Positions 27,624 to 64,000 of a DNA stretch of 64,000 nt are shown here, one piece after another. The position numbers and the translations under genes were made by a program. Source of the DNA: Amphiscolops sp. MND2022 (Eukaryota); the NCBI GenBank assembly GCA_964187785.1, contig OZ076409.1, positions 32,056,001-32,120,000 on the forward strand. Reading direction: 5' to 3'. How positions within the stretch are numbered: the first letter of the stretch is position 1; every line of letters starts with the position of its first letter. The notes below the pieces were generated by a model. That model had not been told where the DNA came from and made no database searches. It worked only from the letters and a program-made list of their open reading frames with translations.

Positions 27624-28348
27624 TGTAACGGCACCCTGTGATCAACAAAATTTTCGAAGGTTGACAATTTTCTGAAAAATTCGTTCAAAAGTGACGTGGC
27701 CCTCAAACATGAGTTCACGAGATACCAGTCCAGCCAACTCATAAAGAGCGTGCACAAGCAAAGCCCGCGAGGCGGAAAAAAGAAGCGGAATGTCGAAAAA
27801 GTGCGTGAAACGTCATAAAACAGAAGAACCGTAGCCTATGCGCTAATTCCCACGGTGCCCATCGCAGTTTGCACAGAATCAGCATGTTCGAGTAATTATA
27901 CTATCCGGACCCAGGGTTGTGCCGAACCCGAGAACCAGTGCCATGCCACCTAGACCCAATTCGCCAAACTGGATTTTAACTCTTCTTTGACGTGTTATCG
28001 ATTTGTTTGATGAATTTTTAATTCGAGAGCTACTCTTGTTAATGTTGATGTCATTTACAATAGATTCCCCTCTGGATCATTCAATTTAGTTCTATGCAAC
28101 TCGACCCCCTTTTTACAGGCTATTTACACAGTGGATACGAGGAAAAATCGTATTTCATGTGACTAGTAGCAGTAACAGACCGGAGCAGGTCAGAGAGCAT
28201 CCCTAGAGACGGTTCTCCCTTCTCGGGACCGGCATTCCCTAGGAGGACAAAATGGACTGGAGTTATGGTGATTAGTCCCGGATCTTGACCCATAGCTTCG
28301 GTTCCTCCATCCCTTGTAGCGAATAAACGCTCAGCGCTTTTCATTACA
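27624..28348 (+). repeat. 3' LTR of element 2
   Basis: Direct repeat of 14318-15042, preceded by a purine tract at 27614-27623. Confidence 0.95.
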
Positions 28349-28367
28349 TTTTTTCACTGTTTTCCAG

Positions 28368-37702: not shown

Positions 37703-39192
37703 TTGTTTAGGGTAGTTGTTTTAGTTTTTTTATAGGGTTGATGTAGGTTCAATGATTGTATTTTCTGATTTTCCTCACCTTGAGTTGTCATTATTGATAG
37801 GAACCAATAAGTGTCCCAGCATTTTGAACTTTTCAACAGGAATTTTTGGCAACGTTTTAGCAACGTAAGAAACAGTGTAACAAAGATCACTAAAAACTCT
37901 CTGATTTAATTTATGAAACCAACATGTTTTTGAACTTTCCTAGCATCATTTGTTTGTCGCCTAAAAGTTCCTAGGTATCGGTAAATATGATTTTTCACTC
38001 AAAAACTCAGTTGATTCTTATTATTTCAGTCCCGCGTCATAAAACCAGGTATCGAAATTCCAAGTTGCGTCACCCTTCCTTAACATTTGTTGAAATCGAT
38101 TTTGTTCAAGCAAAATAATTTCCTGTTTGAACTTCAAAATGGCGGTAGAATAAAATTTACTTGCTATTTCTATTGCAAAAAGCACACCGGCATGACCAAT
38201 TAGTCAATTTCCAAGTTGGGAATTCAAGTGCTCAGGACAAAAGTATGACCATCAAAAATGACGACGTAACTAAAACGGAATGAAATTGTTCGAGGTTGAA
38301 CGAAATACTGCGATGAGTGAAAGGTAACGAATGATGCTAAATATTACCTGTTCCAGTGTCTACTGGAAGTTACAAATGCATTCAGTTTGTCAAAAGGGGC
38401 AAAATTCATGTATCACAACTATATACCTAGCAATATAACAAAACGCAAAATCAAACGGAAACCTTACGGCCGACAGTATTCACTTCGTACTAAATGAGTA
38501 TAAAACATCAAGCTACGAATAGTTACAAAGGTATATTGTCACACTGTGTGCGACAATCACGAGATTATTTTGAGATTCAGCAACAGCACTGGATAAGGAA
38601 TTACATTTGTTTGGGAGAAAAACAAGTATTTTATTCACGTCGCCCATACGTTAAGTTTGGGATCGTCCGGTAATTTGTGACCCACAGTTATGATGAAAAG
38701 TTCAAAGTTGATTGATTAGAAAAATCGTATGTTACGTAAGGTGAACGTGATTCCATGATTAGTGTTCCAGTATCAATCCTAAACATTAAAAGTATAAACA
38801 CAGTTCCACAATTCTCCCTTACAGTTCAGCTTTTGGCATACAAAATTATGTGCCTGAAGTTTTCTTAATGCATCGTTTCCTGAACAAATCTCTTTCAAAA
38901 CTAGCCCAAAAGATCATCTCGCTGATACACTGTTACAATTCACTCCGTAACGTCTCCGTACGTATTAAGATTAGGTCTAGCTGAGCAGCGGTTGACGGAG
39001 ACATCATTTTGAGCTTTGGAAAATCATTCCAATTCTCTAACTAAGGACGTCACAAAGTCATTCCAAAGAATAACGTAATGCTAGCTTAGCTGTCTTGATG
39101 ACGTCACAGAAAGCACGCCAATTAGTTCACAACAGCATATTTAACTGGAGCAATCGCGTTTAATGTAATAACAACCGGGAACTGGCTGTGAC
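37703..39192 (+). repeat. Copy B of the ~1.5 kb direct repeat (no insertion)
   Basis: Diverged collinear match to copy A, continuous across the element 3 insertion point (~38560-38575). Confidence 0.85.
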
Positions 39193-39594
39193 ACAGTGAT
39201 TTTACTATGATCAAAGTGGAAGAATTTTTTGTAACGTCAAGCTAGTGACGCACATACCGGAACTGGGACAAGGCACATGTTGCCTAGACTGGAGACCACT
39301 GGAGACCATAGTACTATAGTTAATATAAGCATTAGTTTTTAGTCCCTAAAGGTCTCCTAGGGGACTTTTTGATACGAATTAGGAGCGTCCTTAAATTAGA
39401 GCTCCGTGGCGACGTGCCGGCACACTCAAAGTCCGGACACGACCCACAAGGCTGTAAAAACGTATCTTAAAAATCCTGAGACCTCCTACATACTTCTGAG
39501 ATGTAAAAACAAGTGTTTAGCAAAGGTACTTTCTATTAGATGAACAGCATCTAAAATGAGGAAAACAAGGACATTATTTGTCAATGCATATTCC

Positions 39595-40207
39595 ATTTTA
39601 TCCCAGTATTTGGCACAACGTACAATATACCCAATCAAGCTTCAGTGTAGAAACCCACATTCAGCAGCAAGGGCTACTCAGCGGCCCTATACTACAGACG
39701 AACCAGGTAATGCCGGAAGTTGCATAGTACTGTCCTGGTTGTTCCAGGACAAACAATTAAATCGCTGTAGAGACCCTTCCACTCTACGTGGCATGGTCAA
39801 AATACCCCAAGGAAACCATCAGGAACATAAATGTGCGATCAAGAGCTTTCGCGAACAGATTCAGTGCGACGTTGATCTGTTTCAAAAAAGCTGGACTGTC
39901 CGACAGTCCAGCTTTTTTGAAACAGATCAACGTCGCACTGAATCTGTTCGCGAAAGCTCTTGATCGCACATTTATGTTCCTGATGGTTTCCTTGGGGTAT
40001 TTTGACCATGCCACGTAGAGTGGAAGGGTCTCTACAGCGATTTAATTGTTTGTCCTGGAACAACCAGGACAGTACTATGCAACTTCCGGCATTACCTGGT
40101 TCGTCTGTAGTATAGGGCCGCTGAGTAGCCCTTGCTGCTGAATGTGGGTTTCTACACTGAAGCTTGATTGGGTATATTGTACGTTGTGCCAAATACTGGG
40201 ATAAAAT
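39595..40207. repeat. Perfect palindrome, 306-bp arms, 1-nt centre (39901)
   Basis: 39595-39900 is the reverse complement of 39902-40207; the ORF track shows identical ORFs on both strands. Confidence 0.97.
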
Positions 40208-40380
40208 CTTCGAGTTTCCTGAGATCAGGTGAACGAAGTTTGTCTGTTCATCTATGCTGCACGCCGGACTTCTCGCAAGGGTAACCTGACGAGTCGTCAG
40301 GTTACCCTTGCGAGAAGTCCGGCGTGCAGCATAGATGAACAGACAAACTTCGTTCACCTGATCTCAGGAAACTCGAAGAT
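40206..40380. repeat. Perfect palindrome, 87-bp arms, 1-nt centre (40293)
   Basis: ATCTTCGAGTTTCC...CTGACGA G TCGTCAG...GGAAACTCGAAGAT. Confidence 0.97.
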
Positions 40381-42335: not shown

Positions 42336-42609
42336 CTTGCCATCAAATCACGCTCGAACTGTCAATTTATATTTGATTTTGACTCCAACGAACAAAATTG
42401 GTTCACGTATAGGGTTTATTCTAATTTGTGAAGTTTTTCAAACGCTCTGTGATTTCTCTCAAAAATTTTTGTTAGCTGACTTTCCGTCAAGTAAAAAATA
42501 TCGAACTCCACAGTTGTTTTTGTCATTGAACATTCATAAATAAACTGCAGCAAACAATATGGATCAAAGTCAAAACGGGAAGCAATACAGTACAAATTGC
42601 GTCCACAGA

Positions 42610-43218
42610 AATAGTTAGCGAAATGCCGATTCGGGCCAAGCAACCAGAAAAATTCAAGTTCATATAATCAATAAAAATAAACACATTTTCAATACATATC
42701 ATCAAAAATAACACGATGAAGCAAAAATTCACTAACCTCTATGATGCAATGTGTAATAATAACACGTTGCTGGACAGCCAGCGTTATTGTACAACCAACG
42801 TTAATATACAACCAACGTTAATGTACAGCCAGCGTTGCTGTACCGGACTGTGTGTAATGCAAATTGATGCAGCTTTGCAAAATAAATTTCTACCATGCAA
42901 ATCCTCTGTTCGGTCTTTATACAAGTAAAACTAACATTGATTCGTCTCCTATAGCTTAGTGGTTATAGCATTGACTAAAGTTAAGGCTTCGGCCGGAGTG
43001 TTTGGGGTTCACTTCTAACCAACGTCCCCAGTCTTTGTTATAACTTACATGCTATGGGAGAATAATCACCAATGGCACAGTTCTTAAAAAGGATAACCCC
43101 TGCTGTGGAAACTCTTAGTGGATTGGACTCCCGATGGGCTTTGAGTTTACCTTAGGTATGCCAATGCACGTGCCAATGCATATGCTAATGAGCATGCCTA
43201 TGGGTTTTGTATTTTTTA
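42610..43218 (+). repeat. Left terminal inverted repeat
   Basis: Reverse complement of ~56322-57005. Confidence 0.95.
42944..43035 (+). ncRNA. tRNA-like / Pol III-type unit in the left TIR
   Basis: A-box/D-arm TAGCTTAGTGGTTATAGCA, stem TTGAC-TAAA-GTTAA, hairpin GGC-TTCG-GCC, B-box-like GGTTCACTTC. Confidence 0.4.
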
Positions 43219-43369
43219 AAAATAATTATTTACAAATCTTAATACATGGGAAAAGATAATTTATCTCATCCCCGTAGGAGAACAAAGGCGTAGCTTCGCG
43301 TTGTTGGCGCAGCTTCACACAACATTAATACACAAGAATGAAATATAACTAAAAAGTGAATTATCTCTC

Positions 43370-43767
43370 ATTCAAAGAATATGTTGAAAAATATGGATTA
43401 AAAACGAAGTAACTTCCACTGTAAAAAGAAAAGAAGTTCTTGATAAACTAAAAATCCCAGCTGGAGTGTATATGTTGATAAGTTTACAACAGATTCTGGA
43501 ATTGTGAATTTACATCCAACTAAAGGAACACATTGGGTTATGTTTGTTAACGAGTTTTATTTTGATTCATATGGATGTCCACCTCCAACTAATATACTTA
43601 ATCACATTAAAAAAGGTATCTATTCAGAATATCAAATTCAGACCGACGACAGTTATTGTGCAGAGTATTGTTTATATGTTTTTTATCTCACACAAATTAT
43701 ACGCTTCAATAATGCAGTTTTAAATTTATACTATCAAACTTTCAAACTTGATAAAGAAAAAAATTAA
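43370..43767 (+). pseudogene. Adenain-like (Ulp1/C5-type) cysteine protease
   Basis: GTHWV...YFDSYGCPP...QIQ....YCAEYC (His, Asp, Gln, Cys in order). Start approximate. Confidence 0.85.
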
Positions 43768-43939
43768 TAATTATTCAGCTCAATATAAAATTATACAATC
43801 TCATGAAAATAATCCGAATCCATGTAGCTTCGCGAATAAGAATCCGAACAAGAATCGGAACAAGAAAAATTATCAGAAGATAGGCAAGAGTTCATAAATA
43901 TCATAGCTGCTAGTGGATTCAAACAATTTAATCTATATT

Positions 43940-44938
43940 AAAAGGATCTATCAATCTTCGTAACATATGATAAAAAAGAATCTCTTCGTTTAAATATTAC
44001 AAAATCTAATCAAGAAATTGTTGAAAATACACATTCTAAACCACAAGAAACTCTAGAATTTAAAATGACTAAACAAAAAGAATCTTTCTCATTCGATGTT
44101 CCATTGGAATTACCGGAAAAATGGACGATGGAAGTAACAAGTTCAGAAGTATACAACCCTGTATATAACAATACTGAAAAGAATAACAAACTTGAAATTC
44201 TTCTAACAAAACAACAACTCGAAGAGCATAGAGTTGACACTGAATTTGTGCCAAATATAAAAACTTTATACGAAACATCTGATGATAAATTTATAGGAAA
44301 AACTAATACACGTATAACTAATAGTTATTCTAAAAAGAAAAACAACTTACTAGAAAAGACTTTACCACACTCAAGGAATTATTTGAAGTTTTTAACTATC
44401 CTAATGAACAAATACATATTCCGGACTTTGGAATTGAACATGATTCCTTTGGAATACCGTTAATACCAGTAGCATATGAATTAGTTGATATCAATGCTTC
44501 CGTAAAACAAATAATTACTGATTCTGATTTTAGAATTAACATCCAAGCAGATGACCCTCAATGAAATCAGTTTTAACAACCTTATTCTTTTTAACTGCGA
44601 ACTTAACAAAGTCCTGGGCTTTACACTTACAGATTCACCATCTGGAACTCACACTTCAGAAAAACCAGTCATGATAACAACCTTCGATAAAGTTCATCTG
44701 AAGTGCGACTGTGTAGATGATTCAATTGTTAATGGTATACGAGAACAATTTTTTTTCATTCAATTTAAGCGCACCCTCTGGATATAAAATTATAAAAGAA
44801 CCAACCACTGTTTTGTATAAAAAAATAAACAAAACACGATTGGACACCATCCAATTTGTCCTTGAAGACTCCAACCACGACAGAGTTGATTTCAACGGGG
44901 AGACATTAACATTTACAGTTCAAATTTTCAAGATATAA
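43940..44938 (+). pseudogene. Minor capsid (penton-like) protein
   Basis: DKVHLKCDCVDDSIVNG...SAPSGYKIIKEP...LED...VDFNGETLT resembles the Polinton minor capsid C-terminus; frameshifted. Confidence 0.7.
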
Positions 44939-44947
44939 AGCTAATAA

Positions 44948-45409
44948 ATGAACATTAATAAACAAAGCGCATTCAATAAACTTAAAAATAATTCATACTG
45001 TGTTGGTGGAAAACATTATTCCGCTACCACAAATCTTTATGGAGATATTACAGTCAATAAAAAAAATTGGTTTACCAGTAAAACTATAAGAGGTACTTGT
45101 TCAACTTGTAAAAGAAATAAATCACTTATAGTTTCTGATCAAACAATAAATGGGAAAGGATTGGGTGACTTCTTCAAACACTTGGGCAAAGCAACTACCA
45201 AAGCAGCCAATAATGTTGGAAAAAAACTACTCAATAATCCAGCCCGCGCATTGGAAAAAGGAGCAAGTATTGGAACTGCAGCAGCAAGTAAAAATCCAAA
45301 ACCTATTGCTGCAACTGCTCCTGATATTATAAAAATTGTTCATCAAGGGAAGGGTTTATATTTGGGGAAAATTCACAAATTATACTTTAAAAATGTATCC
45401 AATTCATAA
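44948..45409 (+). CDS. Small basic virion-core-like protein
   Basis: Cys motifs (YCVGG, CSTC) followed by GKGLGDFFKHLGKA, resembling a protease site plus an amphipathic helix. Confidence 0.5.
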   Translation: MNINKQSAFNKLKNNSYCVGGKHYSATTNLYGDITVNKKNWFTSKTIRGTCSTCKRNKSLIVSDQTINGKGLGDFFKHLGKATTKAANNVGKKLLNNPARALEKGASIGTAAASKNPKPIAATAPDIIKIVHQGKGLYLGKIHKLYFKNVSNS

Positions 45410-46422
45410 TCGTGATGACTTGGAAAAATTAAAAAAAATACAAGAAACAAAATCTTTACTACACAACAAAAGGGTAAAAGAGAAACTAGGGAGCAAGACT
45501 TTCACTATGATATGGAAGAAGTTTTTGAACCTGTTATCGAAAACCAGAAACAAAACCAAACTGAACAACAAGAATTTTCTGAAAAGCAAATACAAGCGCT
45601 ACGTGATTCTACTCAAACTACAACACAAGCAATCGAAAATCAGAAAAGAGCATTAGAACACAGTAGTGATATTTTGAATAAAAATTTACGAAAATCTATT
45701 AAAGAAGGAATACAAGAATATGATGAAATCATAAATCGTAATAATCAACTCCTTACAAATCTTGTTAATTCCAACCAAGTTGCTTCTAGTATTATAAAGA
45801 CAGTTTCCAACTTTCTTAACGACAAAAACAAAAGTCAATTTAGTTTAGAACCAATTATGGATAATCCGCGCAGCTTCGCAATTTCATTCAAATTTAATCC
45901 CCATAACCCACAACAAGTACTAATCAAAGGTTCAACGATGACTTTCGAGAATGGGCCCCAGATCTTCAATCTTTTATAACTAATACACAATTTTCTAGAG
46001 AAATAAATAACCAGGACACAATTTATAGTTTCTTAATTGATATCAAATATAACATAAATTATGGGGATAAAAAATCAACGAGATATTAATTTATTAAAGA
46101 GTTGTACTCTCGCTATCATTGGGGTAATACTATCGACATTATTCAATTGCAGGGCTTCGCAGGAAGTGGAGAACAGGGGTGTGCACAGGGCTCCACGCGA
46201 GGCTACGCGCAGGGCTACACACAACAGTTTATTTTCCTCCCATCTAATCCAGAGGAATTAGTGGATCAATTAAAACTTCTTTGTTTTGAAAAATTAGGAG
46301 GAAATGACAGTTTTCTACTCAATGAACAAATCATAGCAATTGTAGATAAACTCCTGGAGTATGAATGCATAACACCTTCTCAACACCAAAATATGCGAAG
46401 TATGTTAAGCACCCAACCTTAA
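45394..46422 (+). pseudogene. Conserved Polinton hypothetical protein
   Basis: Coiled-coil region (EEVFEPVIE...) and C-terminal LPSNPEELVDQLKLL...GGND...IIAIVDKLLE, a pattern I recognise from Polinton ORFs. Start approximate. Confidence 0.5.
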
Positions 46423-47377
46423 AATGGATCCGTTTGTGGATTAAAGATCTTGTAGTTTGGATTAGATTCATTACACACCTGGTATTTATTCCCATTTTTA
46501 TCTTCTAACCTATTTATTCATAAGTAGTTGTATTTTTCTTTCCACGCCTCTCTGCACAACTCCTTGAGTTCATCATAAGACATATCAAAACCTGCAATAT
46601 CTTTGTATATGTGTTCTATATCTTTCAAGGTTTGTTGAAATAAAATTATTTTATTCGAATTGTTTCTAATTGTTCTTTTGGGTACCTCGAAGTAACTCTG
46701 ACTTCGATAATAAACATCACACAAGTTGTGTCTTCCTCTAGTAAAAAATGGATCTATTAACTTCTGATTGGAGTCTAACATAACATCAAACACAACACAA
46801 CACTTTTGAAAATCTTGAATAGTTTTATCACCTAAATCTTCTTTCACTACCAGTCGTAAGTCCCCGACATCCAGTTTCAACTTACTCCCCACATCTGCAT
46901 ATTGTTCAGGACTTCTCGTAACGATATGTATTGTTTTTCACTATCACACAATCGAATTAATTGTAATTTGTTTATTAATAAGTGAGTTTTACCACAAAAT
47001 GATGGGTCAACTATTAATGTACTATAATGCTGTAATACATCATCATCATCATCAATGGGAGCGCCGTTTGCGATAGCTTCCGCAATAGCTTGCGCGGCAT
47101 CTTTGGTAGCACATTTGAAAGAATGTTTGATTTTAATAGATTGTTCATAATGAAGCCCTAGGGCGTAGCTCTGCGCGTAGCTCTGCGGGTAGCTCTGCGC
47201 GGAGCCCTGCCCATGACCCTCTGTGTAGCCTTGCGCGTAGCGCTGTGAATGCGTGGAGCCCTGCCCCTGTGTGTAGCCTTGCGCGTAGCTCTGCGCGTAG
47301 CTCTGCAAGTGCTGTTTCTTAATATGAGACCTTAAATAACTTTTATTTAATTCCTTATTATAAAATTCACACCTCAC
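46420..47377 (-). pseudogene. A32/FtsK-like packaging ATPase 1
   Basis: Walker A-like LIVDPSFCGKT, Walker B VVFD, RGRH, QSYF..PK.TIRNN; N-terminal 12-bp repeat tract. Confidence 0.85.
47161..47306. repeat. 12-bp minisatellite (GCGTAGCTCTGC variants), in frame in ATPase 1
   Basis: Encodes QSYA/QGYT repeats. Confidence 0.85.
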
Positions 47378-47554
47378 TTTTTATTTAAAACATTCTATAC
47401 ATATACTGTACATTTTACCGTTTTTATACATATAAAAATTTGTATTGGAATCTGTCTTCATTTTGTTACAGTCTTACATCTTTTTTTATTACTACAATCA
47501 TCACATAGTGCTTTCATTAAAAATTAAACACTTCATTTATTTAGAGAAAAATCA

Positions 47555-47890
47555 CTAAATTCCTCTCAATTTCTCTCAGAATCTCTAAATTTCTCTAAGC
47601 AGAGATGCACTAACTTCCTCTAAACTTCTCTAAAAATCACTAAGTTAAATCTCTAAGAATCTCTAAGTGTCTCTAAGTGTCTTAAGAATCTCTAAATTTC
47701 TCTAAGAGCATGATTCAGAGAATTATAGAGGACTCTTAGAGAATCTTGGAGATTTTTAGAGATTTACTAATTTCTCTAAGAATCTCTAAATTCCTCTAAG
47801 AATCTCATCACTAAGAATCTCTAAATTCCTCTAAACTTCTCTAAATCATTATAATTTTTTCTAACTTTTTTGTAATTTTCTCTAAGCATT
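47555..47890. repeat. CTCTAA/TTAGAG low-complexity array
   Basis: Many CTCTAA(G/A) units, with a short oppositely oriented patch at ~47716-47765. Confidence 0.8.
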
Positions 47891-48815
47891 ATTCAGTTTA
47901 TGTTTGGTAAAATTTTTTGCCTGATCAAGGATAACTTTCTTAAAGTCCTCTTTAACTGAATCACTAATTAGTGGTTGTTGCATACGCTCAACGTAGTTGT
48001 CTATTTTGGATTCATTCACTTTTATTTTTTTTGTTTACAATAATATACATAATAAAAAGCTATGTTGTATGTTGTTATTTCAATTGTCTGGTCAGACATC
48101 TCCTCTAAAAACACCTTGAGCTTGTTGTATTCCTCACCACTAAAAAAATAACTTTCATAAGCAACGTAATTTTCTGGTCTCCACTTGTTGCGCTTACTAG
48201 AATCATAAATTACATTGTACTTGTTGTTTAGTATTTTGTACTTCTGACTCCTTGTGTCAAATTCAATAAAACTAAATTCTAATTGATCACGGTATTGTTT
48301 TCACTTTGATTGTGTAACTCCGTCTTTAATTGAATAAGTTTGTATTATAGTTTCAAAAAAGTTATCTGGAATATTAATTGTTATAAAGATCTTAAAACAA
48401 TTCTGTCTCACTATTGGGAGAACATCCTTTGCATAGTGAGCTAAATATATCACCTGGATGTTATGATGTCTACCAAACCGGAACAAGTCTTCTACTTTTG
48501 TTTTAAGACTTTTGTATGCACCTGCATCATCCAGTATAACCGTTTTATTAGCAAGTGATTCAATACCTATTTTTCCAACTGTAACAAGGGTACAAAGTTA
48601 GAGGCAGGAAACTATTCTTCATCTCGCCCAAATACTACGTAATTGGCTTTGCGTGGACTCTGTGTTAAATGATGCTTGAAGAAAGATGTATTCCCTGACG
48701 CACTACTTCCATAAATTAACATATGACAGTTCGTATGCGTAGCCGTTTTACTGACTGGTTGAGTTAGTTGCGAAGCTACGCCTTCTTGGTTTGTAAGATG
48801 ACAGTATTTGAACCC
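47890..48815 (-). pseudogene. A32/FtsK-like ATPase 2
   Basis: Minus strand reads MLIYGSSASGNTSF (Walker A, K>N), KTVILDDAG (Walker B), FGRHHNIQVIYLAH, IVRQNC. Ends approximate. Confidence 0.75.
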
Positions 48816-49065
48816 TTCAAATTGTAATAGTTTTTTTATATATATTTTTAAACCATTTAGGGCGAATATAACGCCAATATATTATGAATATATTTACTAT
48901 TATAATTATACAAATAATATTAAATATTGAGTAGCTTTGCGGATTAACTTTCCGTAACCAACTGGCACGTTCGGTAGTGGCTTTGGGTACCTTCGTGTCT
49001 TCTGCCGAATTCGTGTAATAATCATCATTCATTTATTTAGAAAAAAATGTATAAAACTATAATAA

Positions 49066-49934
49066 ATGAATCAAAATAAGAAAGAAATCGCTAAAGAAAG
49101 ATTCTCTCCTGTAATTAGGAATTTTCAAAGAATTCAAATATAAACACACTATAAGGATGATTGTTGAAGTATCGATTTAATTGATCGCTCAAGTTTAAGC
49201 AAATGCAACAAAAACTACAAGTTTATATTCACAATAATTGACAATCATACTAAATAGGCATGGGCTATTCCTCTCAAAGATAAATCAGGAAAAAGTACCA
49301 CAACTGCATTCAAGAAACTCATTGAAAAAGAGAAGAGAAAACCACAAAAAGTGTGGAGTGATAGAGGTAAAGAGTTTTACAACCAGACATTTTTAAACTT
49401 CCTAAAAGAGCAAAACATTCAAATTTATTCAACCAATTCAGATTTGAAGGCTGTTTTTGTTGAACGTTTCAAAAGAACACTTTCGGACTTGATCAAAGAA
49501 CCAATGTATATTGAAGGTAAAGGTAACTGGTTGAATCACATTAATAATGCTCTGAAAAATTATAATAATTGTGTCCATGGTACAACAAAAAAGACACCAT
49601 TTGAAATGAGTTTTAATAAACCAATACCGCGAAGCTACGCCAATCTGATACCCAATAATGATAATAATAATCATATTTCCAAGTGGAGGATTTTGTAAGA
49701 GTTCCTGACAAACGCAGTTTCTATAGTAAAGGTTATACAACAAATTGGAACAGAGAACTTTTCAAAATACACAAAATTAATTCAACGAACCCAGTAACAA
49801 ACACTTTGGAAGATGAAAACAAATAAATTATTCAAGGAAAATACTATGAACAAGAACTTTTAGGAAGTATATTCAACTTTGACTCTGACAACAAAACGTT
49901 AGAAAGTATGAATATTTTCCACAAAATGGAGTAA
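49066..49934 (+). pseudogene. Retroviral-type (rve) integrase of the Polinton
   Basis: SIDLID, IIDNHTK, WSDRGKEF, KAVFVERFKRTL, KGYTTNW; stops and frameshifts. Confidence 0.93.
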
Positions 49935-49960
49935 GTTCCCAATAATTTTTTTTATTATAA

Positions 49961-51214
49961 ATGAATTCTATATCGACAGGCGCAGCTTCGCATTCAATGT
50001 TTTCTTTAAAAAGTAAATACACACTCGAAAAACCTATTCATAAAATTGATTTTATAAAGTACTCACCGAGTAGTTTAGCGACAGTTAATAACGCCAACTC
50101 GAATATAAGTGTCACTTTACCAAGAGAAGATGCATACATATGTTTACAAAACTCATACATAAGTTTAGAATTTGAAGTTCTCAAAAATGATAATACAAGA
50201 TACAATAATGGTGATGAAATAAGCTTGGTTAACTTTGGGCCTGTTGCTTTATTTAGTGAAGCTAAACTGACAAGTTCGGGCAAGCATTTGGAAAAAATTA
50301 ACAATTTGCACCCAATTTCTTTAATGAATAAACTTTTAACTAGCATTTATCAAACCAGCCAGTTTTTGTATGAGTTTGAAGAAAGTACTGCTATCAGAAG
50401 ACAAGAACTAATAAACCACAAAACAGAAAAAGGAACCTTTTTTGTGAGAAAAAAACTAAAAGACTTGTTTGGATTTGCTGATCAGGAAAAAATATATTAT
50501 GGATTGGGCTACACTCTTACTTTCAAACGGAACACTAAAATGACGCGATTTTAAGGGGTATTGCAGTGGATGCTGCAAAAGTAGTTCTATAAGACATAAG
50601 TTGGTATATTCCACACTATGACCAAACTTAAAAAACCAACAACTTGTCCTTAATCAAATATTAAATAAAGACCCAACCGAATTGCATTACATTGAAAGAG
50701 TTGTTTTTAGAAAAGATGATAACCCCAATAAAAATGGGACATTTGAATTAGGCAATTCGGGTGAATCAACACCAACTTTTGTAATTGTTGGATTTCAAGC
50801 TAGAAATAAAATTGATTCACAAACACACGATAATGCAACATTTGATAGAATTCGGTTAGTAATGTAGTTTGTAAAATAGGATCAGAAAACAATCCCGATG
50901 GTGGAATAGAATGTGACTACGACCTCGACAAATAGGATCAAGCATACCGTGAAATTGAAAACTTTTATACCTTGCATTCTGAATGCAATCTACTCAACCC
51001 ATTTTTTGATTTGTACAAATTCAGAACAAAATTTAGTTTTTATGTATTCGATTTATCAAAACAAAAAGATCACATTGCGAGTCAACCAATCCGTTTAGAA
51101 TTTAAATTTAATGCTGCTTTTGGTGTAGCAGAATATATAGCTTATCCCTTAGTTCTAACCCTGAAACTAATAGGTATTAGTAGTGTTGGACGAAGGCATT
51201 TTGATTTATTATGA
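49961..51214 (+). pseudogene. Major capsid protein (double jelly-roll type)
   Basis: About 400 codons over several frames; YSPSSL..NN..ISVTLPREDAYICLQNSYISLEFEV, PTFVIVGFQ and YVFDLSKQ match Polinton MCP patterns. Confidence 0.75.
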
Positions 51215-51307
51215 TGAATACATTATATTAAAAAATATACAACATTAAAAAGAAATACTAATCAAATTTTGTGATAATGATAATAGTATAATTATAACAG
51301 GTAAGTG

Positions 51308-54300
51308 TCACAATAAATGGGCCCGATCACTTATCAGATTTGAAAGATCTTGATGATTCAATTTTTCTTTCAGAGTCCAAATGTTATAGTATATTTCTTC
51401 ATCCCAGAGGGGCTTGCCGTCCGTTTCACTTGTGCTCAATTCTTTATAAAACAAACCAATTAATTTCAAACAAAATATACAAGGACAATCGCCTTTCTGG
51501 GTGTGTTTATCCCATGATAAACTTTGTATTGAATTTAAGTACACAAGCTTGTCATCAAAAGGATTCAAAGCTAGTTTGTTTTGTTTCTCCACACTTAGTT
51601 TGTGTAAATTAGATCTAATTGATTAATTTGTTGCACTTGTTGTTTCGGACATAAACAAACATTGTGTGTAATCTTCACATTTAGGGGCTTTTTGTATTGC
51701 TTTTTGTTTTGCTTTTTGAAAACCATTATAACTAAAAGAATACGACTTCGATCGTAAAGCTGTGAAGCTGTCTAACACCAAAACTGGACTTGTTTCAATT
51801 TTCATTTTTCCTATAACTTTTTTGTTGGTTGGGTTGTACAGTTGATGAGCATTGTCTAGTTCACTGAAATCAAATTCATCTTTATTTTGCTTTAAAAACT
51901 CAATTAAATTTTCCCACCGACTGTCAAAACTAAGAACAAAAGAATCTGTATCCATGTAGTGAAGGTGTACTTTATTTTGCCAATGTGGTTCTAAAGTATT
52001 GTAATAAATTTCATACATTAGTAACTTACTTAGTTCTAAAACTCTAAAACCTAAATAAATTGGTTTATCAAAGACAGTTTTTTCTTATCAAACTTGTACA
52101 CACTAAACACACTGTACCAATCCACAATACCTTTGAAACTTAACTTGGATTGTCTTTTTATTTTTTGCTGTATTTGAGAATGATGAATTTCAGATTAACA
52201 CGGTCGCTTACATTTTCCATAGTCTTACCTAAGAAAGCATTATTCATTAATTTGTACAAGTCTTTTTCGAAGTTTGTTTTTGCTTTTGTGCGTTTTTGGG
52301 TGTTATGATCAATGTATTTTGCTAACCATGGACTTTGCTTGAAGCGGTAGATTGTATGAATGTGTGTTACTTTCATCTCCATTTCAGTGTAAAACTTGAA
52401 CATCCTGTAGTGTATAATATATTTTGGTTTGTTTTTCAGGTCACACACAAGTTTCTGAGTTGGTGTGTAATTGGGTTGTTTTACACTATTCATATAATCT
52501 GAGAAGTACTCTGGATCGACTTTTGTTTGATAAGGACAAAGTGGAAAGTTTTCCGTTTTTTTCTTTAATTTCAGCTGGATATTCTAGATCACATTCAATA
52601 AAGTAGCCAATTTCATTATCATCTGGAATAAATCTCAAATCTTCTACTACTTGTTCTAGTTCATACGGTTGTGGAAAGTATAGTTTTTCAAATGTGCCTG
52701 TAGGAGGGTTTTGACTCATTGCCCATCCATATAGATTATTAGCGTCGATGTACAAAATTTGTTTGTTTTCGTTTGATTCAACAAATCGATCACCCATAAC
52801 ACTTGAAATTTCTCCACGTATATTCTTTTCCAATAACAGTAACAAGTGTTTATCTTCTATAAAGTCTAACTGTATATTAGTCAACTTCAATCCAGCTTTC
52901 CATGCATACCCAGGAGCTGAGAAGGAGTACAATGGATTGATGCCATACTCTTCAGTGGATGTTTGCACAAAGTTCTCAAAGATATCAGTTAGTTGAAGGA
53001 CATCCATTTTTAAGTATAACATAGTAAGTTGTTCAGGTGTTGTAATGTTGTATTTGTCAATTAATTGTTGGGTTCTTTTTATATCATCATCACACGGGTA
53101 AGATTGTGTTAATGTTGACCAATAGTCTTCTTTTGTTAGATTTAATGGTTCTTGGAAATTATAAGATTTATTTTTCATATGGATACGCTAACTTCTTCCT
53201 AAACAAATCATCAATTAAACAATCACTATTCATATACTTAAGAGTATCCAGAGATGCTATAAGTTTTTGTAGACTAGAAGAAAGAAATCGGTATGAATCT
53301 AAAATTCTCAAACAACCTACTTGGACTGATACATAGTTTTCCATTGACTTTGAAATTATCGTTGGATGGTAGTTTTGATTGAAAGATTCGGTTAAGAGTT
53401 GTTCAAAAATTAAATGACAGTCATATCCCGAAAAGTTGTGGAAAAATATGGGAACAAATGAACTTGGCTTTTTTTTACAATTTAAATTACACCTGTTGTG
53501 AGCTGCTCCTCGGTACTTGCCTGTAAGATGATCGTGATCTCGAACTTTTTCACCGGGGGCGCTTTGCGTATCACCGAGTGGTTTTTCGCGTAGTGCTTGT
53601 TCGCAAAGCCAGCATATGATAGATTGTTGAAATGATTCTTCTTCTTCGATTTCAAGAGGAATGTTAGGTTCGAAATTTTCCGATGCAATTTTTTTAAAGT
53701 CAACATTTCGTTTACAAACCAAGCTACACAATCTCTTCCAAAGTATGAGTAGCACTCGTTCCCAAATGGTGAATTTAGATAAAAGCCTACTGCATTTGGA
53801 ATTTGTTTGAATAATACTTTGGGCGCAGCTTCGCGGTCTTCTGTTGGTTGATTAGAACATTCAAAATCTGCATATACACTTATTGGTACAGGAACTTCCA
53901 TATGATAATCTTCGAACTTTAAGTGATCCTTCCAACTGAATGTAATATCAGTTGGTTGTTGTTTTTGACAACGGTCAATGTGTTGATTGAGAATATCCTC
54001 AGAACTAAATGCAGTTAGACATCTTCTACACACCCATTTCATGTGTGAACTTTTATTTATTAGACAAAGCAACTTTGTAATTAGGCAATAACGATTTTCA
54101 AATAGCAGAAAGGCAGTTGGTGGTTGTAAGTAATTTTTGTTAACATGAATTGGTGTTAATACTGTTCCAGTGAGTTCAAAAACATTTACGTTTAAATTAT
54201 TCAAGTTATCAAACTTGGGAATGTCTTTAACTTTCATAGGGAATTCTAATCCTTTCAGGTTGAGTTTGATCATATGCATTGAATAACTTGATGTTCTATT

Positions 54301-55108
54301 TTTATGATCCTCAACGGGACAAAGTTGTGCTAGGATGCACCATAGAAAACAATATTGATCATCATTTTTTATAATTATAATTGATTTATTATTCTTATAT
54401 TTTTCTGGCAACTCAATGTATGACGAAGCTTGAAGATCATTGACGTTATATATTTCTAATAGAACATTGACAATACCGTTTAACACAAAACCTGATCCTT
54501 CTAATTGTTCATCATCTAATTTCTGCATTAATGTGTTATGAATTGTATGATTTGTGTCGAATGTGCTTTGTATGTGATTATAATTAAAATCTGATTTAAC
54601 CCATTTGTGAAATACATTTTTTTCTCCATTAACTATTTTTGAAAACTTAGCTGAATAACTCAATTGATATTTATATCGGGGAAAGTAATTTTTATCTAGT
54701 AGTTCATTTATGTAATGTTCAAGATTTTGCGAAGCTACGCCAGTTGTATTTACTCTCAGTTTATTGTTTGTTTTTTCATTCACAATTTCTTCCACACCCG
54801 ATAAAGTTTTCACATCAAAGCGTGGAAGGCTGTGTACGAGGCTGCGTGGGCTTTGTGAATTTCACTTTGGAAATGTGTTGTTTTATCATTTATGTATTTA
54901 CCACAATCTTCACACCAAACTTGCCCTGTTTAGTTTTGTTCTTGTATTGGTCTGAACCTAAATGATTTGACTTGTCTGATAGGGGCATAAATTTATTACA
55001 TTTTTTACAATAATATCGATTTAATTTTTCTAAATGTTTTACTGATTTTAGATGATCAGACTTGAAAGCTTTTTTATAATCAGAATTAAAAATACTACAG
55101 TTCTCCAA
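51308..55108 (-). pseudogene. polB: Protein-primed family B DNA polymerase
   Basis: Exonuclease YADFE, FHNFSGYD; EndoVII-like zinc insert CWLC...VRDHDHLTGKYRGAAHNRCN; polymerase YIDANNLYG, KLMNN..GKT, YMDTDS; N-terminal zinc fingers; many frameshifts. Confidence 0.96.
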
Positions 55109-55251
55109 TTATTTACAATAAATTTACGAATTTAATAGCAGTATATTTTTCAATAGTATATTTTTTAATTAGGAGCGTTAATTTTTGTTTTACTTTTTAT
55201 GTTAAAATTGAACAAATTAATTATAAACAATTGTATGGCTTACGCGATGGC

Positions 55252-55851
55252 TTATGCGATGGTATATGCGATGTCAGTGTTGTAGTCGGTGTTGTTGTAT
55301 CGCGAAGCTGTGCGCGTAGCTTTGCACGCTTGTTTGTTATAGTTTGTGATTGTGAAGCTATGCGATAAATTTCCATGTTCACAAATCGGCGATTTTTTTT
55401 CATCTATGTGATTATTTTTTAGGCTAGTGGCAAATATTTGTCTTAAGTCATCAAGTGTCTTCTGAATAATAGCGTACTTGAGTTTATAATTTTGCTCCTT
55501 TTTCTTCAAATAACTGGAACAAATTTTAACAAGAATACCAGTTGCACAACCAACTCCTGCAGTGATTGGAACAACTATAATTCCCACACCAGTAATACTT
55601 AGTGTAACGGATGCTGAAGTTGTTCCTATTTTTATAAGACCATCTGTCGAGTTAATTATGTTATTTATTAGCTTGCATTTGGTGAATTTTTTCTTGTATT
55701 TCTTTTCTTCCAATTCATAGTATTTCATCATTAGACTAATGTTTTGAATAGAATTATTGAAACTAGATACTTTTTGTAATTGTTTATTTATCATTGATTC
55801 TACATCATTCGGTGCAGAGGGGGTCATTGAGGGATAGATATTTTCTTCCAT
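55252..55851 (-). CDS. Polinton membrane-associated protein (hydrophobic hairpin between basic helices)
   Basis: TTSASVTLSITGVGIIVVPITAGVGCATGILV hydrophobic segment; N-terminal PSAP motif. Confidence 0.55.
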   Translation of the reverse strand: MEENIYPSMTPSAPNDVESMINKQLQKVSSFNNSIQNISLMMKYYELEEKKYKKKFTKCKLINNIINSTDGLIKIGTTSASVTLSITGVGIIVVPITAGVGCATGILVKICSSYLKKKEQNYKLKYAIIQKTLDDLRQIFATSLKNNHIDEKKSPICEHGNLSHSFTITNYNKQACKATRTASRYNNTDYNTDIAYTIA

Positions 55852-55976
55852 TTATTAATCATATAAAATGAAATTTATTTCCGTTGGCGTTAATTTCATT
55901 CTGTGTTTCATATCAACAAGGTCGTTATAGGAATCTTTTTTCAATGACTTCAAAATACTTTCTCTGGTAGAATATT

Positions 55977-56303
55977 CTAAATCAGACAGATAATATTCAT
56001 CATCTGAAGTAGGTATTGTTTTTCTGAAAACTGGGAATAAATATCATTGATTAACTTTGTGTTTAATAAAACATTTTGAACTTCCTGTGGGTCTAGTATT
56101 TGGTCTAGCATTTTTTTTGTTAATTTCCCTCGATTTTCTATGTCATTTTCAAAATCGCGTTGCAAATCTTCTTTTAATTTGGAATGGGTTATTTGGGCTA
56201 ATTTTTCTTGACTTTTTATCATATCTTTTAGGTCCTGATATTCCCTCAGTTTTAGCTGTTCACTAGAATAACCAAACTTATGAAGAGACGGAGTTTCATA
56301 CAT
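55977..56303 (-). CDS. Hypothetical Polinton protein
   Basis: 108-aa ORF starting at TAAATG just inside the right TIR. Confidence 0.45.
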   Translation of the reverse strand: MYETPSLHKFGYSSEQLKLREYQDLKDMIKSQEKLAQITHSKLKEDLQRDFENDIENRGKLTKKMLDQILDPQEVQNVLLNTKLINDIYSQFSEKQYLLQMMNIICLI

Positions 56304-56321
56304 TTATTAGGATGAAAAAGT

Positions 56322-57005
56322 TGAAAAATGCAAAACCCATAGGCATGCTCATTAGCTTATGCATTGGCACGTGCATTGGCATACCTATGGTAAACTCAAA
56401 GCCCATCGGGACTCCGTTTCACTAAGAGTTTCCACAGCAGGGATTATCCTTTTTAAGAACTGTGCCATTGGTGATTATTCTCCCATAGCATGTAAGTTAT
56501 AACAAAGACTGAGGGACGTTGGTTAGAAGTGAACCCCAAACACTTCGGCCGAAGCCTTAACTTTAGTCAATGCTATAACCACTAAGCTATAGGAGACGAA
56601 TCAATGTTAGTTTTATTTGTATAAATACCGAACGGAGGATTTGTATGGTAGAAATTCATTTTGCAAAGCTGCATCAATTTGCATTACACACAGTCCGGTA
56701 CAGCAACGCTGGCTGTACATTAACGTTGACTGTACATTAACGTTGACTCTATATTAACGCTGACTGTACATTAACGCTGGCTGTACATTAACGTTGGTTG
56801 TACATTAACGTTGGTTGTACAATAATGCTGGCTGTACAGCAACGTGTTATTATTACACATTGCATCATAGAGGTTAGTGAATTTTTGCTTCAACGTGTTA
56901 TTTTTGATGATATGGATATGTATTGAAAATATGTTTATTTTTAATGATTATATGAACTTGAATTTTTTTGGTTGCTTGGCCCGAATCGGCATTTCGCTAA
57001 CTACT
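56322..57005 (-). repeat. Right terminal inverted repeat
   Basis: Matches the left TIR but has more copies of an 18-bp unit (CTGTACATTAACGTTG..) at ~56695-56845. Confidence 0.95.
56505..56597 (-). ncRNA. tRNA-like / Pol III-type unit in the right TIR
   Basis: Second copy of 42944-43035. Confidence 0.4.
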
Positions 57006-59289
57006 CACAGAACTTTTTCCAAGTCATCAAAAAGGTAAGAAATTCGATTTGACAATAAAGAGGGAGATATTTGTGCTTTTTAATTGTTGTTCATAGCCTT
57101 CGGTTTAAGTAACCAACAAAAATAGGATTCCTGAAAAAAAACTTTTCCGCGAAATAGTCGAAGACGTAACATTAGGAACTCCATTTCAGAGTATATGGAA
57201 CCATAAAAAAGTTCAATATCGATTTTCTTTGAGGAAGTGTTTTGTATGGAATACAATATACAAACGTGGATGAAAAGAATGCTTTCTATGCTCTAGCGAG
57301 TTGTTTCCGAACATGATTGGGCGATTTCATGTTCTTAGCTATGAAACCACCTCTGTCTTTTTGAACTAGCACTTTTTCCAACAGCTCAGTGGAGTTTAGG
57401 TAAAGCACAGGTTTGCAAGCTAGATGTGAAGAAACAATCTGGGAAGAAAAAAAAACGTGAGAGCGTCACGAAGAAGATAATCAAAATGGTTACAATTACT
57501 ATAATTTCAAAATTGGCGGTGACATACCATACTCAATAAAAAAGTGATTCGATACAGAAATTCATGTTCTGACGAGCGAATTTGATATTATATCGATATT
57601 TTGTCAAAACATCAGTAAATCAATAATCGATATCGATATTGACATTTTGTAAAGGGTAACTACAACGGGTCAACAACGAATCCCTTGAGAACCGCTCCAA
57701 CAATGTCAACGGAATTGTATGAATGATTATCAGTTTTGTCAAATTGAAATCGGCCATCCAGATAAGTCGACAAAAGACTTATGAAGCTCAAATCAAAACC
57801 ACGTTTTTGTACTTTAATGAAATGGACAAGTTGGGGAACAATGACAAACGGTTTTCGTAGACCAAGTATACAGTATGGAAATATTATCGACGTCTTCTTT
57901 GCTTGTGCATTTTCTTTGCAATCAGTAAACGGTATTACCGAAATTTTTCTGATTGAAAACCAGAATACTTTGGGTGTATTTGCAAATGAACTATGGTATA
58001 CATGTACCTGAAGTGTAACCTTTCGAATAGTACAGAGCATTTTGGAAGAAGATTAATGAGGCGCAAACTGGAAAGACGACTTCGCGCTCAAGTTTTGAAT
58101 TAAGTTCTGATGAGAACACTCTTCTATAAGACATGATGATAGCATCTAGTGACAATCATTGAGCTAAAAAGAGAATAGATTGCGAAAAAAACAGTTGCAA
58201 AAACATCAAGACGACCTTTTAATCTTTCAGGAGGGAAACAACTAATGTCATAATTGCTGATTCTTTTCTTTCCACTATCAGTTGCGTGATCGTAGAATCA
58301 TAGAAGGATTGCAAGCTGAAAAATGTCACCCGGCTTGATTAAGTTATCATATTCATGAATCGCAGCATGGGAATGTTGAGTATTGAAATTTTTCGAGAAA
58401 TGAATAACAAACGCACTTGCTATCTGCGAAAGATAGGATATAAGTTCGGTTTCAAGATATTCAGCAGAGTAAAACACATTTTTGAGAAAATTTTTGAGTT
58501 TCTGCATCGTTTGGGAAGTTTAGTAGAACGGTTTATCTAGACGCTTTTTACTTTCTCTTCCGGAAGCAAATCGTTACTGTGCGCAAATGGTTATAAAAAT
58601 CCGCCACATTCGAATCAGTCGGATTGTGCACGAAAGCGAAATTATTCACGATTTCACAAAGGACACCAGATTTGAATGATTCGAGAATGAATTTTCCAAA
58701 AAGTCAACTGAGATTCTTTTCAAAGCTCAAAAAATTGGATGATGGTTACTGAAGCGATCAGTCCTGACTGGAAATTTCGATTTTGAACCGAGATCTTCCG
58801 ATATAATGATATATCGATAATCGAATTTGATATTAACATATTGAACTGGGAGATTTTTGATTTTGAAATCGATATCAAAGCTTTTTGGGCCGATTGGTTC
58901 AATTTTATCAAATTTTACTAACAATTCCGATATTTTCGAAAACGTTCAGGTACGTAACGTTCAAACCAAAAAGAGTTGTTTGTGAAAACTATCTGGATTG
59001 CTGTCAAACAAACACCTGTTGAATGCACGTGTCTGTTGACCTTGTGTTCAGTTGTTTTGAAGATTGGAAGTGACAAATAATCGGAATTGTTCCACGAACA
59101 TACCGAGTGACGTTGAAGAAGCAACTATCAGTGCATCTATTCCATCCGCTACTCAGCCTGCCGTTACGGAGGTAACATTTGATGACTGGTGGGTTTCGGG
59201 AAAGAAATTAGAAGCCAAAAATCGTTTCTGGTCGAGTACGTCACTGGGAGACCAACGAGGCGAATAAAATGCGACCAACACACTAATCA

Positions 59290-63595: not shown

Positions 63596-64000
63596 TATAC
63601 TATACTATACTATACTATACTATACTATACTATACTATACTATACTATACTATACTATACTATACTATACTATACTATACTATACTATACTATACTATAC
63701 TATACTATACTATACTATACTATACTATACTATACTATACTATACTATACTATACTATACTATACTATACTATACTATACTATACTATACTATACTATAC
63801 TATACTATACTATACTATACTATACTATACTATACTATACTATACTATACTATACTATACTATACTATACTATACTATACTATACTATACTATACTATAC
63901 TATACTATACTATACTATACTATACTATACTATACTATACTATACTATACTATACTTTACTATACTATACTACACTATACTATGCTATACTATACTATAC
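63596..64000. repeat. (TATAC)n microsatellite, running off the window
   Basis: About 81 tandem pentamers with a few variants near the end. Confidence 0.99.

Follow-up and report, generated by a model that had tools for sequence, protein, structure and literature searches.

The question raised by this locus is what a second packaging-type ATPase with a predicted membrane anchor is doing in a Polinton-like element that is otherwise of a known kind. The locus lies in a window of 64,000 nucleotides (the whole stretch of DNA analysed) from Amphiscolops sp. MND2022. Polintons copy their linear genome by a protein-primed polymerase from the TIR ends and integrate via an rve integrase, giving a 6-bp TSD. 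They could build a jelly-roll capsid with MCP, penton and protease, to be filled by a packaging ATPase. The core of the element described here is that of an ordinary Beta-adintovirus/group-1 element, and the fossil copy taken alone is equally ordinary. Its distinctive trait, which was absent from the claim of the initial annotation, is the second, membrane-anchored ATPase (ATP2), encoded beside the ordinary packaging ATPase (ATP1). The statement as a whole, that this is a decayed integrated Polinton whose native ATP2 was a membrane-tethered morphogenesis or egress motor while ATP1 filled the capsid, is favoured with slightly better than even confidence.

A Polinton/Maverick of 14,396 bp occupies positions 42610-57005, and the span of 42604-57011 annotated initially as a complete provirus is this element plus both TSDs (Table 1). 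The two ends and the exact 6-bp TSD are borne out by the aligned TIRs and by CACAGA on both sides; a particular 6-mer would occur at a set position by chance with a probability of 2.6e-4. The TIRs agree at 586 of 608 aligned bases, with 22 mismatches (3.6%), and their alignment has three indels, of 6, 68 and 1 bp; the 68-bp indel amounts to four units of the 17-bp array (3.7 versus 7.9 copies). Maverick termini are described in PMC8097293 as (AGT)2//(ACT)2 or (AG)3//(CT)3; the right terminus of the element is an exact match and the left terminus fits with one mismatch.

Table 1 Features of the element, with positions counted in the 64,000-nucleotide window
Feature	Position	Strand	Remarks
Left TSD, CACAGA	42604-42609	.	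Exact match to right copy
Left TIR, 610 bp	42610-43219	+	17-bp tandem array at 42774-42836
Adenain-type cysteine protease remnant	43225-43767	+	Catalytic part open 43447-43767; 5' limit uncertain
Penton (minor capsid)-like gene	43800-44938	+	At least 4 ORF pieces; 5' limit uncertain
Open 153-aa ORF	44948-45409	+	Cys-rich N-terminal part, amphipathic basic helix
Conserved Polinton accessory gene, broken	45333-46422	+	C-terminal piece 33% identical to L001/L004 ORFs, E ~1e-6
ATP1, ordinary Polinton packaging ATPase, broken	46422-47536	-	Zinc-finger-like stretch and repeats in N-terminal part
Spacer of degenerate 10-bp repeats between ATP1 and ATP2	47540-47880	.	
ATP2, second A32/FtsK-HerA ATPase	47885-49032	-	Four frame pieces, 2 stops
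rve integrase, broken	49066-49900	+	3' limit approximate
Double jelly-roll MCP	49961-51214	+	Broken into 4 pieces
Protein-primed DNA polymerase B (pPolB)	51308-55108	-	Putative OTU-like and EndoVII-like inserts; 8 frame pieces
Open 199-aa ORF	55252-55851	-	Hydrophobic segment, KD19 2.1
Gene without assigned family	55855-56303	-	Two pieces; no matches in profile or IMG/VR comparisons
Right TIR, 685 bp	56321-57005	-	17-bp array at 56705-56838; (ACT)2 terminus
Right TSD, CACAGA	57006-57011	.	Exact match to left copy

The gene set that had been claimed (pPolB, integrase, MCP, penton-like gene, protease and packaging ATPase) was located in full. The description of nearly every gene as broken is fair wording, since pPolB, MCP, ATP1, ATP2 and integrase are split into frame pieces and two small ORFs, of 153 and 199 aa, are open from ATG to stop. 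Private amino acid changes at conserved sites amount to 7-9% in this copy and do not exceed about 1% in relatives of full length (medians 0.2-1.0%), in agreement with the fossil state proposed initially. Long-read assembly errors could produce frameshifts in a copy that is not a fossil, and the frame junctions are rich in homopolymers, with a run of at least 6 in 5 of 14 hand-placed windows versus 7% of random windows. Some individual frameshifts may be of this origin; however, the in-frame stops, the TIR mismatches and the private changes are substitutions rather than homopolymer slips, and it is highly improbable that the copy as a whole is explained in this way. The element is almost certainly a fossil Polinton.

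In its divergence from PF03175 the pPolB is of the type seen in Beta adintoviruses/group 1. Its aligned pieces contain 2 stops, and the main ones are 67-82% identical to natural relatives of 1263-1293 aa; exonuclease and polymerase motifs are present in full-length relatives alignable along the entire gene. PF03175 has no match in five of the six full-length relatives scanned and a partial match in the sixth, and one fragment of the element reaches E 0.003, below the cut-off. A Cys and a His in the N-terminal part are invariant in 26 aligned relatives, and comparison with PMC11161782 suggests that this part is OTU-like. The MCP is 78-87% identical to natural relatives of 346-423 aa that bear PF21738, one of which (P0253) scores 74.6 bits against a cut-off of 27; the AlphaFold model of the MCP (pLDDT 35.6) is too poor to contribute to its identity. 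The integrase, in 2 pieces with 3-4 stops, is 34-47% identical to IMG/VR integrases (E 1e-32 to 1e-41), and a fragment of it matches rve PF00665 at E 2.3e-6, below the cut-off. Homologues of the protease remnant were found in 14 IMG/VR ORFs, the best at E 7e-11, and the remnant is 32-39% identical to protease ORFs of IMG/VR Polinton-like loci; the homologue in locus L001 scores 21.1 bits against Peptidase_C5, just under the cut-off of 21.3. The penton-like gene has no family match in profile scans, and its putative identity derives from its position and from its last piece, which is 24-41% identical to the ATPase-adjoining gene in L001, L002, L004, L028 and L029.

Cupiennin and GasderminX accessory genes belong to the repertoire of Beta adintoviruses/group 1. 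The 153-aa ORF, whose helix may be cupiennin/core-protein-like, has no family match and gave no BLAST hit to a candidate in L004. The 199-aa ORF probably encodes a common Polinton accessory membrane protein; it has weak homologues in L001 and L004 (E 0.003-0.03), and its best Atlas score of 0.82 serves as a lead only. A SLATT identity was considered for this protein and rejected, as no SLATT match was found in Pfam or PADLOC scans.

The element belongs to a high-copy family whose relatives in public assemblies include full-length ORFs. For pPolB, 57 of the 106 matches listed show 64-79% identity or alignments of that quality, the clusters have 81, 307 and 264 members, and 24 of 108 close sequences are at least 1240 aa long. 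Single-fragment scans of IMG/VR and JGI found no relative of the element, IMG/VR contains no locus close to it, and its terminal 19-mer is absent from IMG/VR. No named adintovirus or Polinton exemplar appears among the pPolB matches listed. The initial suggestion of an uncharacterised lineage thus stands in part: close relatives are listed without a family name, and the closest IMG/VR loci have pPolB identities of about 27-42% and another gene order. On the other hand, the Beta/group-1 core is unexceptional, Repbase-type libraries and eukaryote genome collections lay outside the comparison, and the element may match an already catalogued family.

ATP1 is found in 2-3 pieces with a stop and is 75-86% identical to its natural relatives. 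It is 27-50% identical to the single ATPase of IMG/VR loci, among which it nests in the tree, and its profile finds that ATPase in 25 of 30 such loci. The spacer that separates ATP1 from ATP2 folds no better than shuffled sequences (z -1.7).

ATP2 is 64-88% identical per piece, over the whole length, to a natural protein of 387 aa (P0459) and matches Pox_A32 above the cut-off. Its natural relatives are single polypeptides of approximately 350-400 aa, composed of a short N-terminal tail, one TM helix, an FtsK-HerA/A32 domain that bears the Walker A, Walker B and arginine-finger motifs, and a helical C-terminal domain. Many close relatives are truncated before Walker A, as expected from decay, and ATP2 may also occur in a split form. 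The TM segment ahead of Walker A is present in 19 of the 21 proteins of the ATP2 family but in none of the 96 ATP1 proteins. A positive-inside bias is evident among close family members and extends to 13 of 18 proteins overall, in windows of unequal size. An AlphaFold model predicts with confidence both a long helix at residues 45-79 and the ATPase core. Relatives number 216 representatives at E<=0.001 among 1.84 billion, identities of 80-94% occur in 12 of the best 120 rows, and 149 of the 150 matches listed for the ATP2 profile map only to the ATP2 span. Searching PDB sequences with this profile returned P-loop matches only. The closest fold is that of the STIV2 packaging NTPase B204 (Z 15.6, rmsd 2.8, 169 aligned), followed by VirB4, HerA and TcpA, and the most similar viral models in BFVD are A32-like ATPases of giant viruses.

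ATP1 and ATP2 are adjacent on the same strand and belong to the same superfamily, an arrangement that would also result from a recent tandem duplication of ATP1. The two proteins are, however, only 26% identical over 125 aa. In a tree of 42 rows drawn from IMG/VR loci and the element's family, which includes long branches and omits 4 IMG/VR rows in which no Walker A was matched by regex, ATP2 forms a separate, small and old clade (support 98/90), and a single clade of ATP1 and ATP2 is rejected (p-AU 0.0008). ATP2 moreover has distant relatives outside the element's family, and the probability that it is a recent duplicate is minimal. By its sequence, ATP2 lies outside the Polinton packaging ATPase clade sampled, that is, the IMG/VR loci and the element's family.

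ATP1 and ATP2 have been seen side by side in this window only, where one complete copy was read. None of the 30 IMG/VR Polinton-like loci carries ATP2. Two candidates were discarded, as the second ATPase-profile match in L030 reads as a nuclease-like ORF and the hydrophobic signal in the ATPase frame of L023 is located before its ATG. With ATP2 sub-alignments IMG/VR yielded nothing except one poxvirus-like ATPase at 25% and JGI yielded two short contigs; GTDB genomes contained no ATP2 relative. The distant ATP2 loci L032 (3.3 kb) and L033 (1.3 kb) have a zinc-finger/EndoVII-like neighbour in common, and no recognisable Polinton core gene was seen in either. When contigs are matched by length among the matches listed, 3 of 37 ATP2 relatives fall together with relatives of pPolB/MCP, the corresponding figure for ATP1 being 22 of 106 (Fisher p 0.13), and 0 of 37 fall together with ATP1; the test is weak, as the contigs are long and the lists capped. 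It may be that ATP2 occurs in some subfamilies only. The literature consulted, chiefly open-access and including the partly legible supplement maps of PMC8502044, yielded no Polinton with two ATPases or with a membrane-anchored ATPase.

The absence of ATP2 from the IMG/VR loci, the coreless short contigs of its distant members and the giant-virus A32 paralogs among its structural neighbours would all suit a cargo gene captured from another group of DNA viruses and serving in host interaction or as an accessory, apart from virion assembly. This reading is nevertheless unlikely. Walker A, Walker B and GRH are found in 18 of 18 distant ATP2 members (median pairwise identity 34%), the catalytic motifs are all kept across 25-35% identity, and ATP2 bears the start motif of the family, ATAAATG. 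Since the identity of ATP2 to its close relatives is within the range of MCP and ATP1, a capture, if any, would be old, and capture and a morphogenesis role are compatible with each other. ATAAATG is common to ATP2 and six other genes, with 7 of its 12 sites in the element on gene starts as compared to 12 of 493 ATGs overall, and ATP2 is therefore probably native. No flanking repeats were seen at ATP2, and its start lies head-to-head with that of the integrase, 33 bp apart. Altogether ATP2 is likely to be a native late gene of the element's family. A connection between ATAAATG and poxvirus late promoters found no support in the literature consulted, including the accessible part of PMC11296320.

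It is proposed that the genome of the ancestor would have been copied from the TIR ends by pPolB and integrated by the rve integrase, and that the ancestor could have built an MCP/penton/protease capsid loaded by ATP1. ATP2 would be a membrane-tethered ring ATPase, with the motor facing the cytosol or nucleoplasm, that docks capsids or genomes at an internal membrane in assembly or egress, and soluble ATP1 would stay the capsid-filling motor. This division of roles is advanced tentatively, with a little less than even confidence. A two-motor Polinton lineage, in which ATP2 as an undescribed deep clade drives viral DNA or capsids into or through a host membrane, is possible but rather doubtful; if true, it would imply that these Polintons assemble or exit by a membrane-dependent route as yet undescribed in the group. 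The element yielded neither a fusogen nor any other envelope gene.

Alternatively, ATP2 could belong to the packaging motor as a subunit or adaptor, acting in a mixed ATP1/ATP2 ring or pumping DNA through an internal capsid membrane in a tectivirus-like manner. The two ATPase genes are adjacent and co-oriented with the same start motif, and the closest solved fold is a packaging NTPase from STIV2, a virus with an internal membrane. Against this, ATP1 and ATP2 share the low identity given above, ATP2 is anchored by an ordinary N-terminal helix and the element showed no further set of internal-membrane proteins, making such a role distinctly unlikely. By analogy with conjugative coupling proteins or SpoIIIE, membrane-bound hexamers that carry DNA from one side of a membrane to the other, ATP2 might instead pump naked Polinton DNA across the nuclear envelope or a cell junction without a virion, as its layout of a TM helix plus FtsK-HerA motor and its structural neighbours VirB4, TcpA, TrwB and FtsK (Z 10.8-15.0) would allow. 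These Z values, however, reflect the common superfamily fold, the element retains a full capsid module, no channel partners were seen and there is one helix only; the analogy is very unlikely to hold. The preferred reading of ATP2 accordingly remains that of a membrane-tethered motor in morphogenesis or egress. Virions of an animal Polinton have not been observed to date, according to 10.64898/2026.06.19.733378 and PMC8097293. A conserved membrane-anchored ATPase beside an ordinary motor hints at a membrane step in the life cycle, and in ATP2 one protein is available for assays of location, ATPase activity and partners. Polinton classification leans on one A32 gene per genome, and a pipeline could pick the wrong paralog here.

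According to the sources, Beta adintoviruses/group-1 Maverick-Polintons (Polintoviricetes) resemble the element in a pPolB divergent from PF03175 with an OTU-like N-terminal part, in the rve integrase, adenain protease, DJR MCP, penton-like gene and FtsK/A32 ATPase, and in TIRs, a 6-bp TSD and AGT/ACT-type ends (PMC8502044; PMC8097293; 10.64898/2026.06.19.733378). The element differs from them in having two ATPases rather than one, the second membrane-anchored. It is slightly shorter than the 15-20 kb Polinton range (PMC4028283), and its gene order is unlike both the vertebrate two-module order, as given in PMC8097293, and that of L001 and L004. L001, L002 and L004 share with the element pPolB (32-34%), MCP (23-28%), ATP1 (36-43%), the penton-like gene, the protease, one accessory gene and, weakly, the hydrophobic ORF, whereas each encodes one soluble ATPase, their genes are mostly co-oriented in another order and their start contexts are A-rich rather than ATAAATG. 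Nematode Polintons encode a proposed fusogen, PC1, which suggests a membrane-bound stage, and their extra membrane protein is thus a precedent for such a stage; yet the extra gene there is a fusogen of at least 730 aa, not an ATPase, and the pPolBs are of group 2 (PMC10748475). The A32-like ATPases of giant viruses and STIV2 B204 have the FtsK-HerA/A32 fold of the ATP2 core, and since several giant viruses give more than one match to ATP2, A32-like paralogs exist there. Their identity to ATP2 is, however, 11-20% and covers the core (approximately residues 100-296) but not the anchor or the C-terminal domain, and the context of ATP2 is a 14-kb integrating element, unlike that of giant viruses or STIV2. 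In its architecture, by analogy, ATP2 resembles the coupling proteins and SpoIIIE-type translocases.

The element belongs to a known kind of Polinton and its distinctive point rests on ATP2, a second ATPase gene of the A32/FtsK-HerA type with an N-terminal transmembrane helix, found alongside the ordinary packaging ATPase gene ATP1. Neither a pair of ATPases nor a membrane-anchored ATPase is reported for a Polinton in the literature searched, which lies mostly outside subscription papers and Repbase; the keyword-matched passages of PMC11131425, PMC10748475, PMC8097293, PMC11296320, PMC5499653 and 10.64898/2026.06.19.733378 mention neither. The uncharacterised lineage proposed in the initial annotation is partly supported, in that no named sequence occurs among the close relatives of the element's genes and the two-ATPase arrangement is unreported in that literature, whereas the protein-primed DNA polymerase B (pPolB) fits the Beta class of a known kind.

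The element is 14,396 bp long and is bounded on both sides by exact CACAGA copies, a repeat with a chance of 2.6e-4 at a fixed site. The terminal inverted repeats (TIRs) of 610 and 685 bp align at 586 matching and 22 mismatching positions; of the three indels between them, the biggest comprises four units of a 17-bp array. Both ends, the TIRs and the exact 6-bp target-site duplication are thus as originally described. The (ACT)2 terminal motif known for Mavericks (accessible text of PMC8097293) is exact at the right end and has one mismatch at the left. G+C content drops to ~0.30-0.35 in the interior, and the flanking DNA is transposon debris (Gypsy-type elements and repeats) in which no host gene was recognised within the window.

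Features of the element and the window, in window positions (genes numbered from the left)
Feature	Strand	Positions	Remark
Polinton element		42610..57005	
1, protease	+		
2, penton-like gene	+		
3, basic ORF	+		153 aa
4, accessory gene	+		
5, ATP1	-		
6, ATP2	-	49032-47885	four pieces aligned to P0459
Small hydrophobic ORF		48817-49032	5' part of ATP2
7, integrase	+		
8, major capsid protein (MCP)	+		
9, pPolB	-		eight frame pieces
10, hydrophobic ORF	-	55252-55851	YPxxxPSAP stretch at N-terminus
11, unknown gene	-		
ATAAATG gene starts		44948, 47536, 49032, 49066, 49961, 55851, 56303	
GCG-AGCTTCGC motif		43288-55356	~20 scattered sites
LTR pair		14318-15043 / 27624-28349	98.8% identity, enclosing Gypsy-type gag-pol element
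More decayed LTR elements		384-3264, 30640-39193	
Long ORFs	-	3972-7939	637, 172 and 302 aa
Palindromes		39595-40380	two, abutting, near-perfect, 613 + 175 bp
5-bp tandem array		63596-64000	perfect, continues past window end

The full set for replication, integration and morphogenesis claimed at the outset is present (pPolB, integrase, MCP, penton-like gene, protease and ATPase). The YPxxxPSAP stretch of the hydrophobic ORF presumably resembles viral late-domain motifs. MCP relatives contain PF21738 and are 78-87% identical. Natural full-length relatives of the pPolB (1263-1293 aa) cover the entire window gene, with main pieces 67-82% identical, and contain exonuclease and polymerase motifs and an Endonuclease_7 insert. 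Five of the six scanned had no PF03175 match, which fits the Beta class as described in the accessible part of PMC8502044; nuclease inserts and a TP-vOTU layout are on record for Polinton pPolBs (PMC11161782), and the gene content of group 1 is taken as given in 10.64898/2026.06.19.733378. The contigs that carry the close relatives are mostly hundreds of kb long, and clusters of up to 307 members, together with 24 of 108 close pPolBs of at least 1240 aa, indicate a family that is high-copy and partly intact elsewhere. Mavericks can make up 4.5% of an invertebrate assembly (PMC6451197).

All core genes are frame-disrupted and most also contain stops. At conserved sites, where 90% or more of the full-length relatives share a residue, private changes in the window copy number 53/767 in pPolB, 23/258 in MCP and 11/156 in ATP1, against medians of 0.2%, 1.0% and 0.6% among the full-length relatives. 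The frame changes, stops and private substitutions agree with the earlier view of a fossil with nearly all genes broken. Homopolymer runs are enriched at the frame junctions (5 of 14 windows placed by hand, against 7% of random windows), so a share of the indels could be assembly errors, which does not hold for the substitutions. Private changes at 7-9% of conserved residues put internal decay above the 4.4% predicted from half the TIR divergence, an excess that may reflect either incomplete subfamily sampling, TIR homogenisation or damage before the last mobilisation in trans.

When the two ATPase fragments were used as queries, 1012 proteins were retrieved, and the best 120 of these comprise 108 ATP1 and 12 ATP2 proteins; the two ATPases share 26% identity across 125 aa. 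The ATP1 profile matches 25 of 30 Polinton-like IMG/VR loci (4-18 kb, many partial) with a single ATPase in each, and the ATP2 profile gives weak matches in three of the 30, at an ORF already matched by the ATP1 profile. It is the alignment of P0459, a natural ATP2-family protein of 387 aa, that assigns the small hydrophobic ORF to ATP2. An exhaustive ATP2 profile search recovered 216 representatives among 1.84 billion; among the 150 listed, 15 have at least 280 aa and 128 fall below 200 aa, the latter being fragments, as from decayed copies. Distant full-length members are mostly on 1-8 kb contigs and are laid out as a hydrophobic helix, an FxGF-like motif, Walker A, Walker B, GRH and C-terminal helices, with Walker A, Walker B and GRH in 18/18 at a median identity of 34%. 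Ahead of Walker A, 19 of the 21 ATP2-family members picked for having the N-terminal part carry a hydrophobic segment (19 residues, mean hydropathy at least 1.8); among the 96 ATP1 proteins whose Walker A was matched, none does.

The model of P0463, another natural ATP2-family protein, has a pLDDT of 72 (core >90, C-domain 45-63) and is closest to STIV2 B204 (Z 15.6, rmsd 2.8, 169 residues), followed by VirB4, HerA and TcpA. Against BFVD the model matched giant-virus A32-like ATPases best and a Drosophila adintovirus FtsK only in 33rd place, and the ESM Atlas likewise returned A32-type clusters. In a 42-row core tree, which leaves out four IMG/VR rows without a matched Walker A and contains three long branches, ATP2 is one side of a 98/90 branch and ATP1 falls among the IMG/VR ATPases. 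Holding ATP1 and ATP2 together was rejected (p-AU 0.0008).

Enclosed by the TIRs, ATP2 is separated from the start of the integrase by 33 bp. ATAAATG occurs at 12 sites in the element (493 ATGs in total), seven of them on gene starts including that of ATP2; because it is also present at the head-to-head ATP2 and integrase starts it is not merely a stop-start or poly(A) overlap, and it is probably a family promoter or initiator. ATP2 relatives are as close to the window gene as MCP and ATP1 relatives are. Position, start motif and closeness count for ATP2 as native, in one whole copy only. Other results are less favourable: contig-length matching to pPolB/MCP relatives, a weak test, linked 3/37 ATP2 versus 22/106 ATP1 relatives, an equally weak matching to ATP1 contigs linked 0/37, and no Polinton core gene was seen at the two distant ATP2 loci recovered, L032 and L033 (3.3 and 1.3 kb). 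At these loci a homologous zinc-finger protein (323-1261 and 578-1219, respectively; E 2.5e-12) with a weak endonuclease VII match adjoins the ATPase, on opposite sides in the two.

The nearly palindromic, G+C-rich motif of 12-13 bases with the core GCG-AGCTTCGC gives 33 strand matches in the A+T-rich element against 1.5 expected, for a post-hoc pattern; its density is 2.3 per kb within the element and 0.3 per kb beyond it. It makes up tandem stretches in ATP1, occurs in natural relatives as short in-frame insertions (a few residues each) that are polymorphic, and may be either a candidate binding site or a tiny mobile insertion. Elsewhere in the window, the abutting palindromes may be either a foldback element or an assembly artefact. 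Two of the long minus-strand ORFs were scanned against Pfam at E 0.001 with no match; a zinc-finger-like stretch in these ORFs suggests a DNA transposon remnant.

The ancestral element would have replicated, integrated and built capsids as in established Polinton biology (PMC4028283), with ATP1 as the putative capsid-filling motor. ATP2 is predicted to be a single-pass membrane protein with its motor facing the cytosol or nucleoplasm, because basic residues come after the helix, clearly in the close family and in 13/18 overall. It may act late, tethering capsids or genomes at an internal membrane to allow assembly or release; alternatively, it could be a captured accessory gene, part of a mixed or through-membrane packaging motor, or a DNA pump of the coupling-protein type. 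The window element, in which no fusogen was found, differs from nematode Polintons, which encode a proposed fusogen that by analogy makes a membrane stage conceivable (accessible text of PMC10748475).
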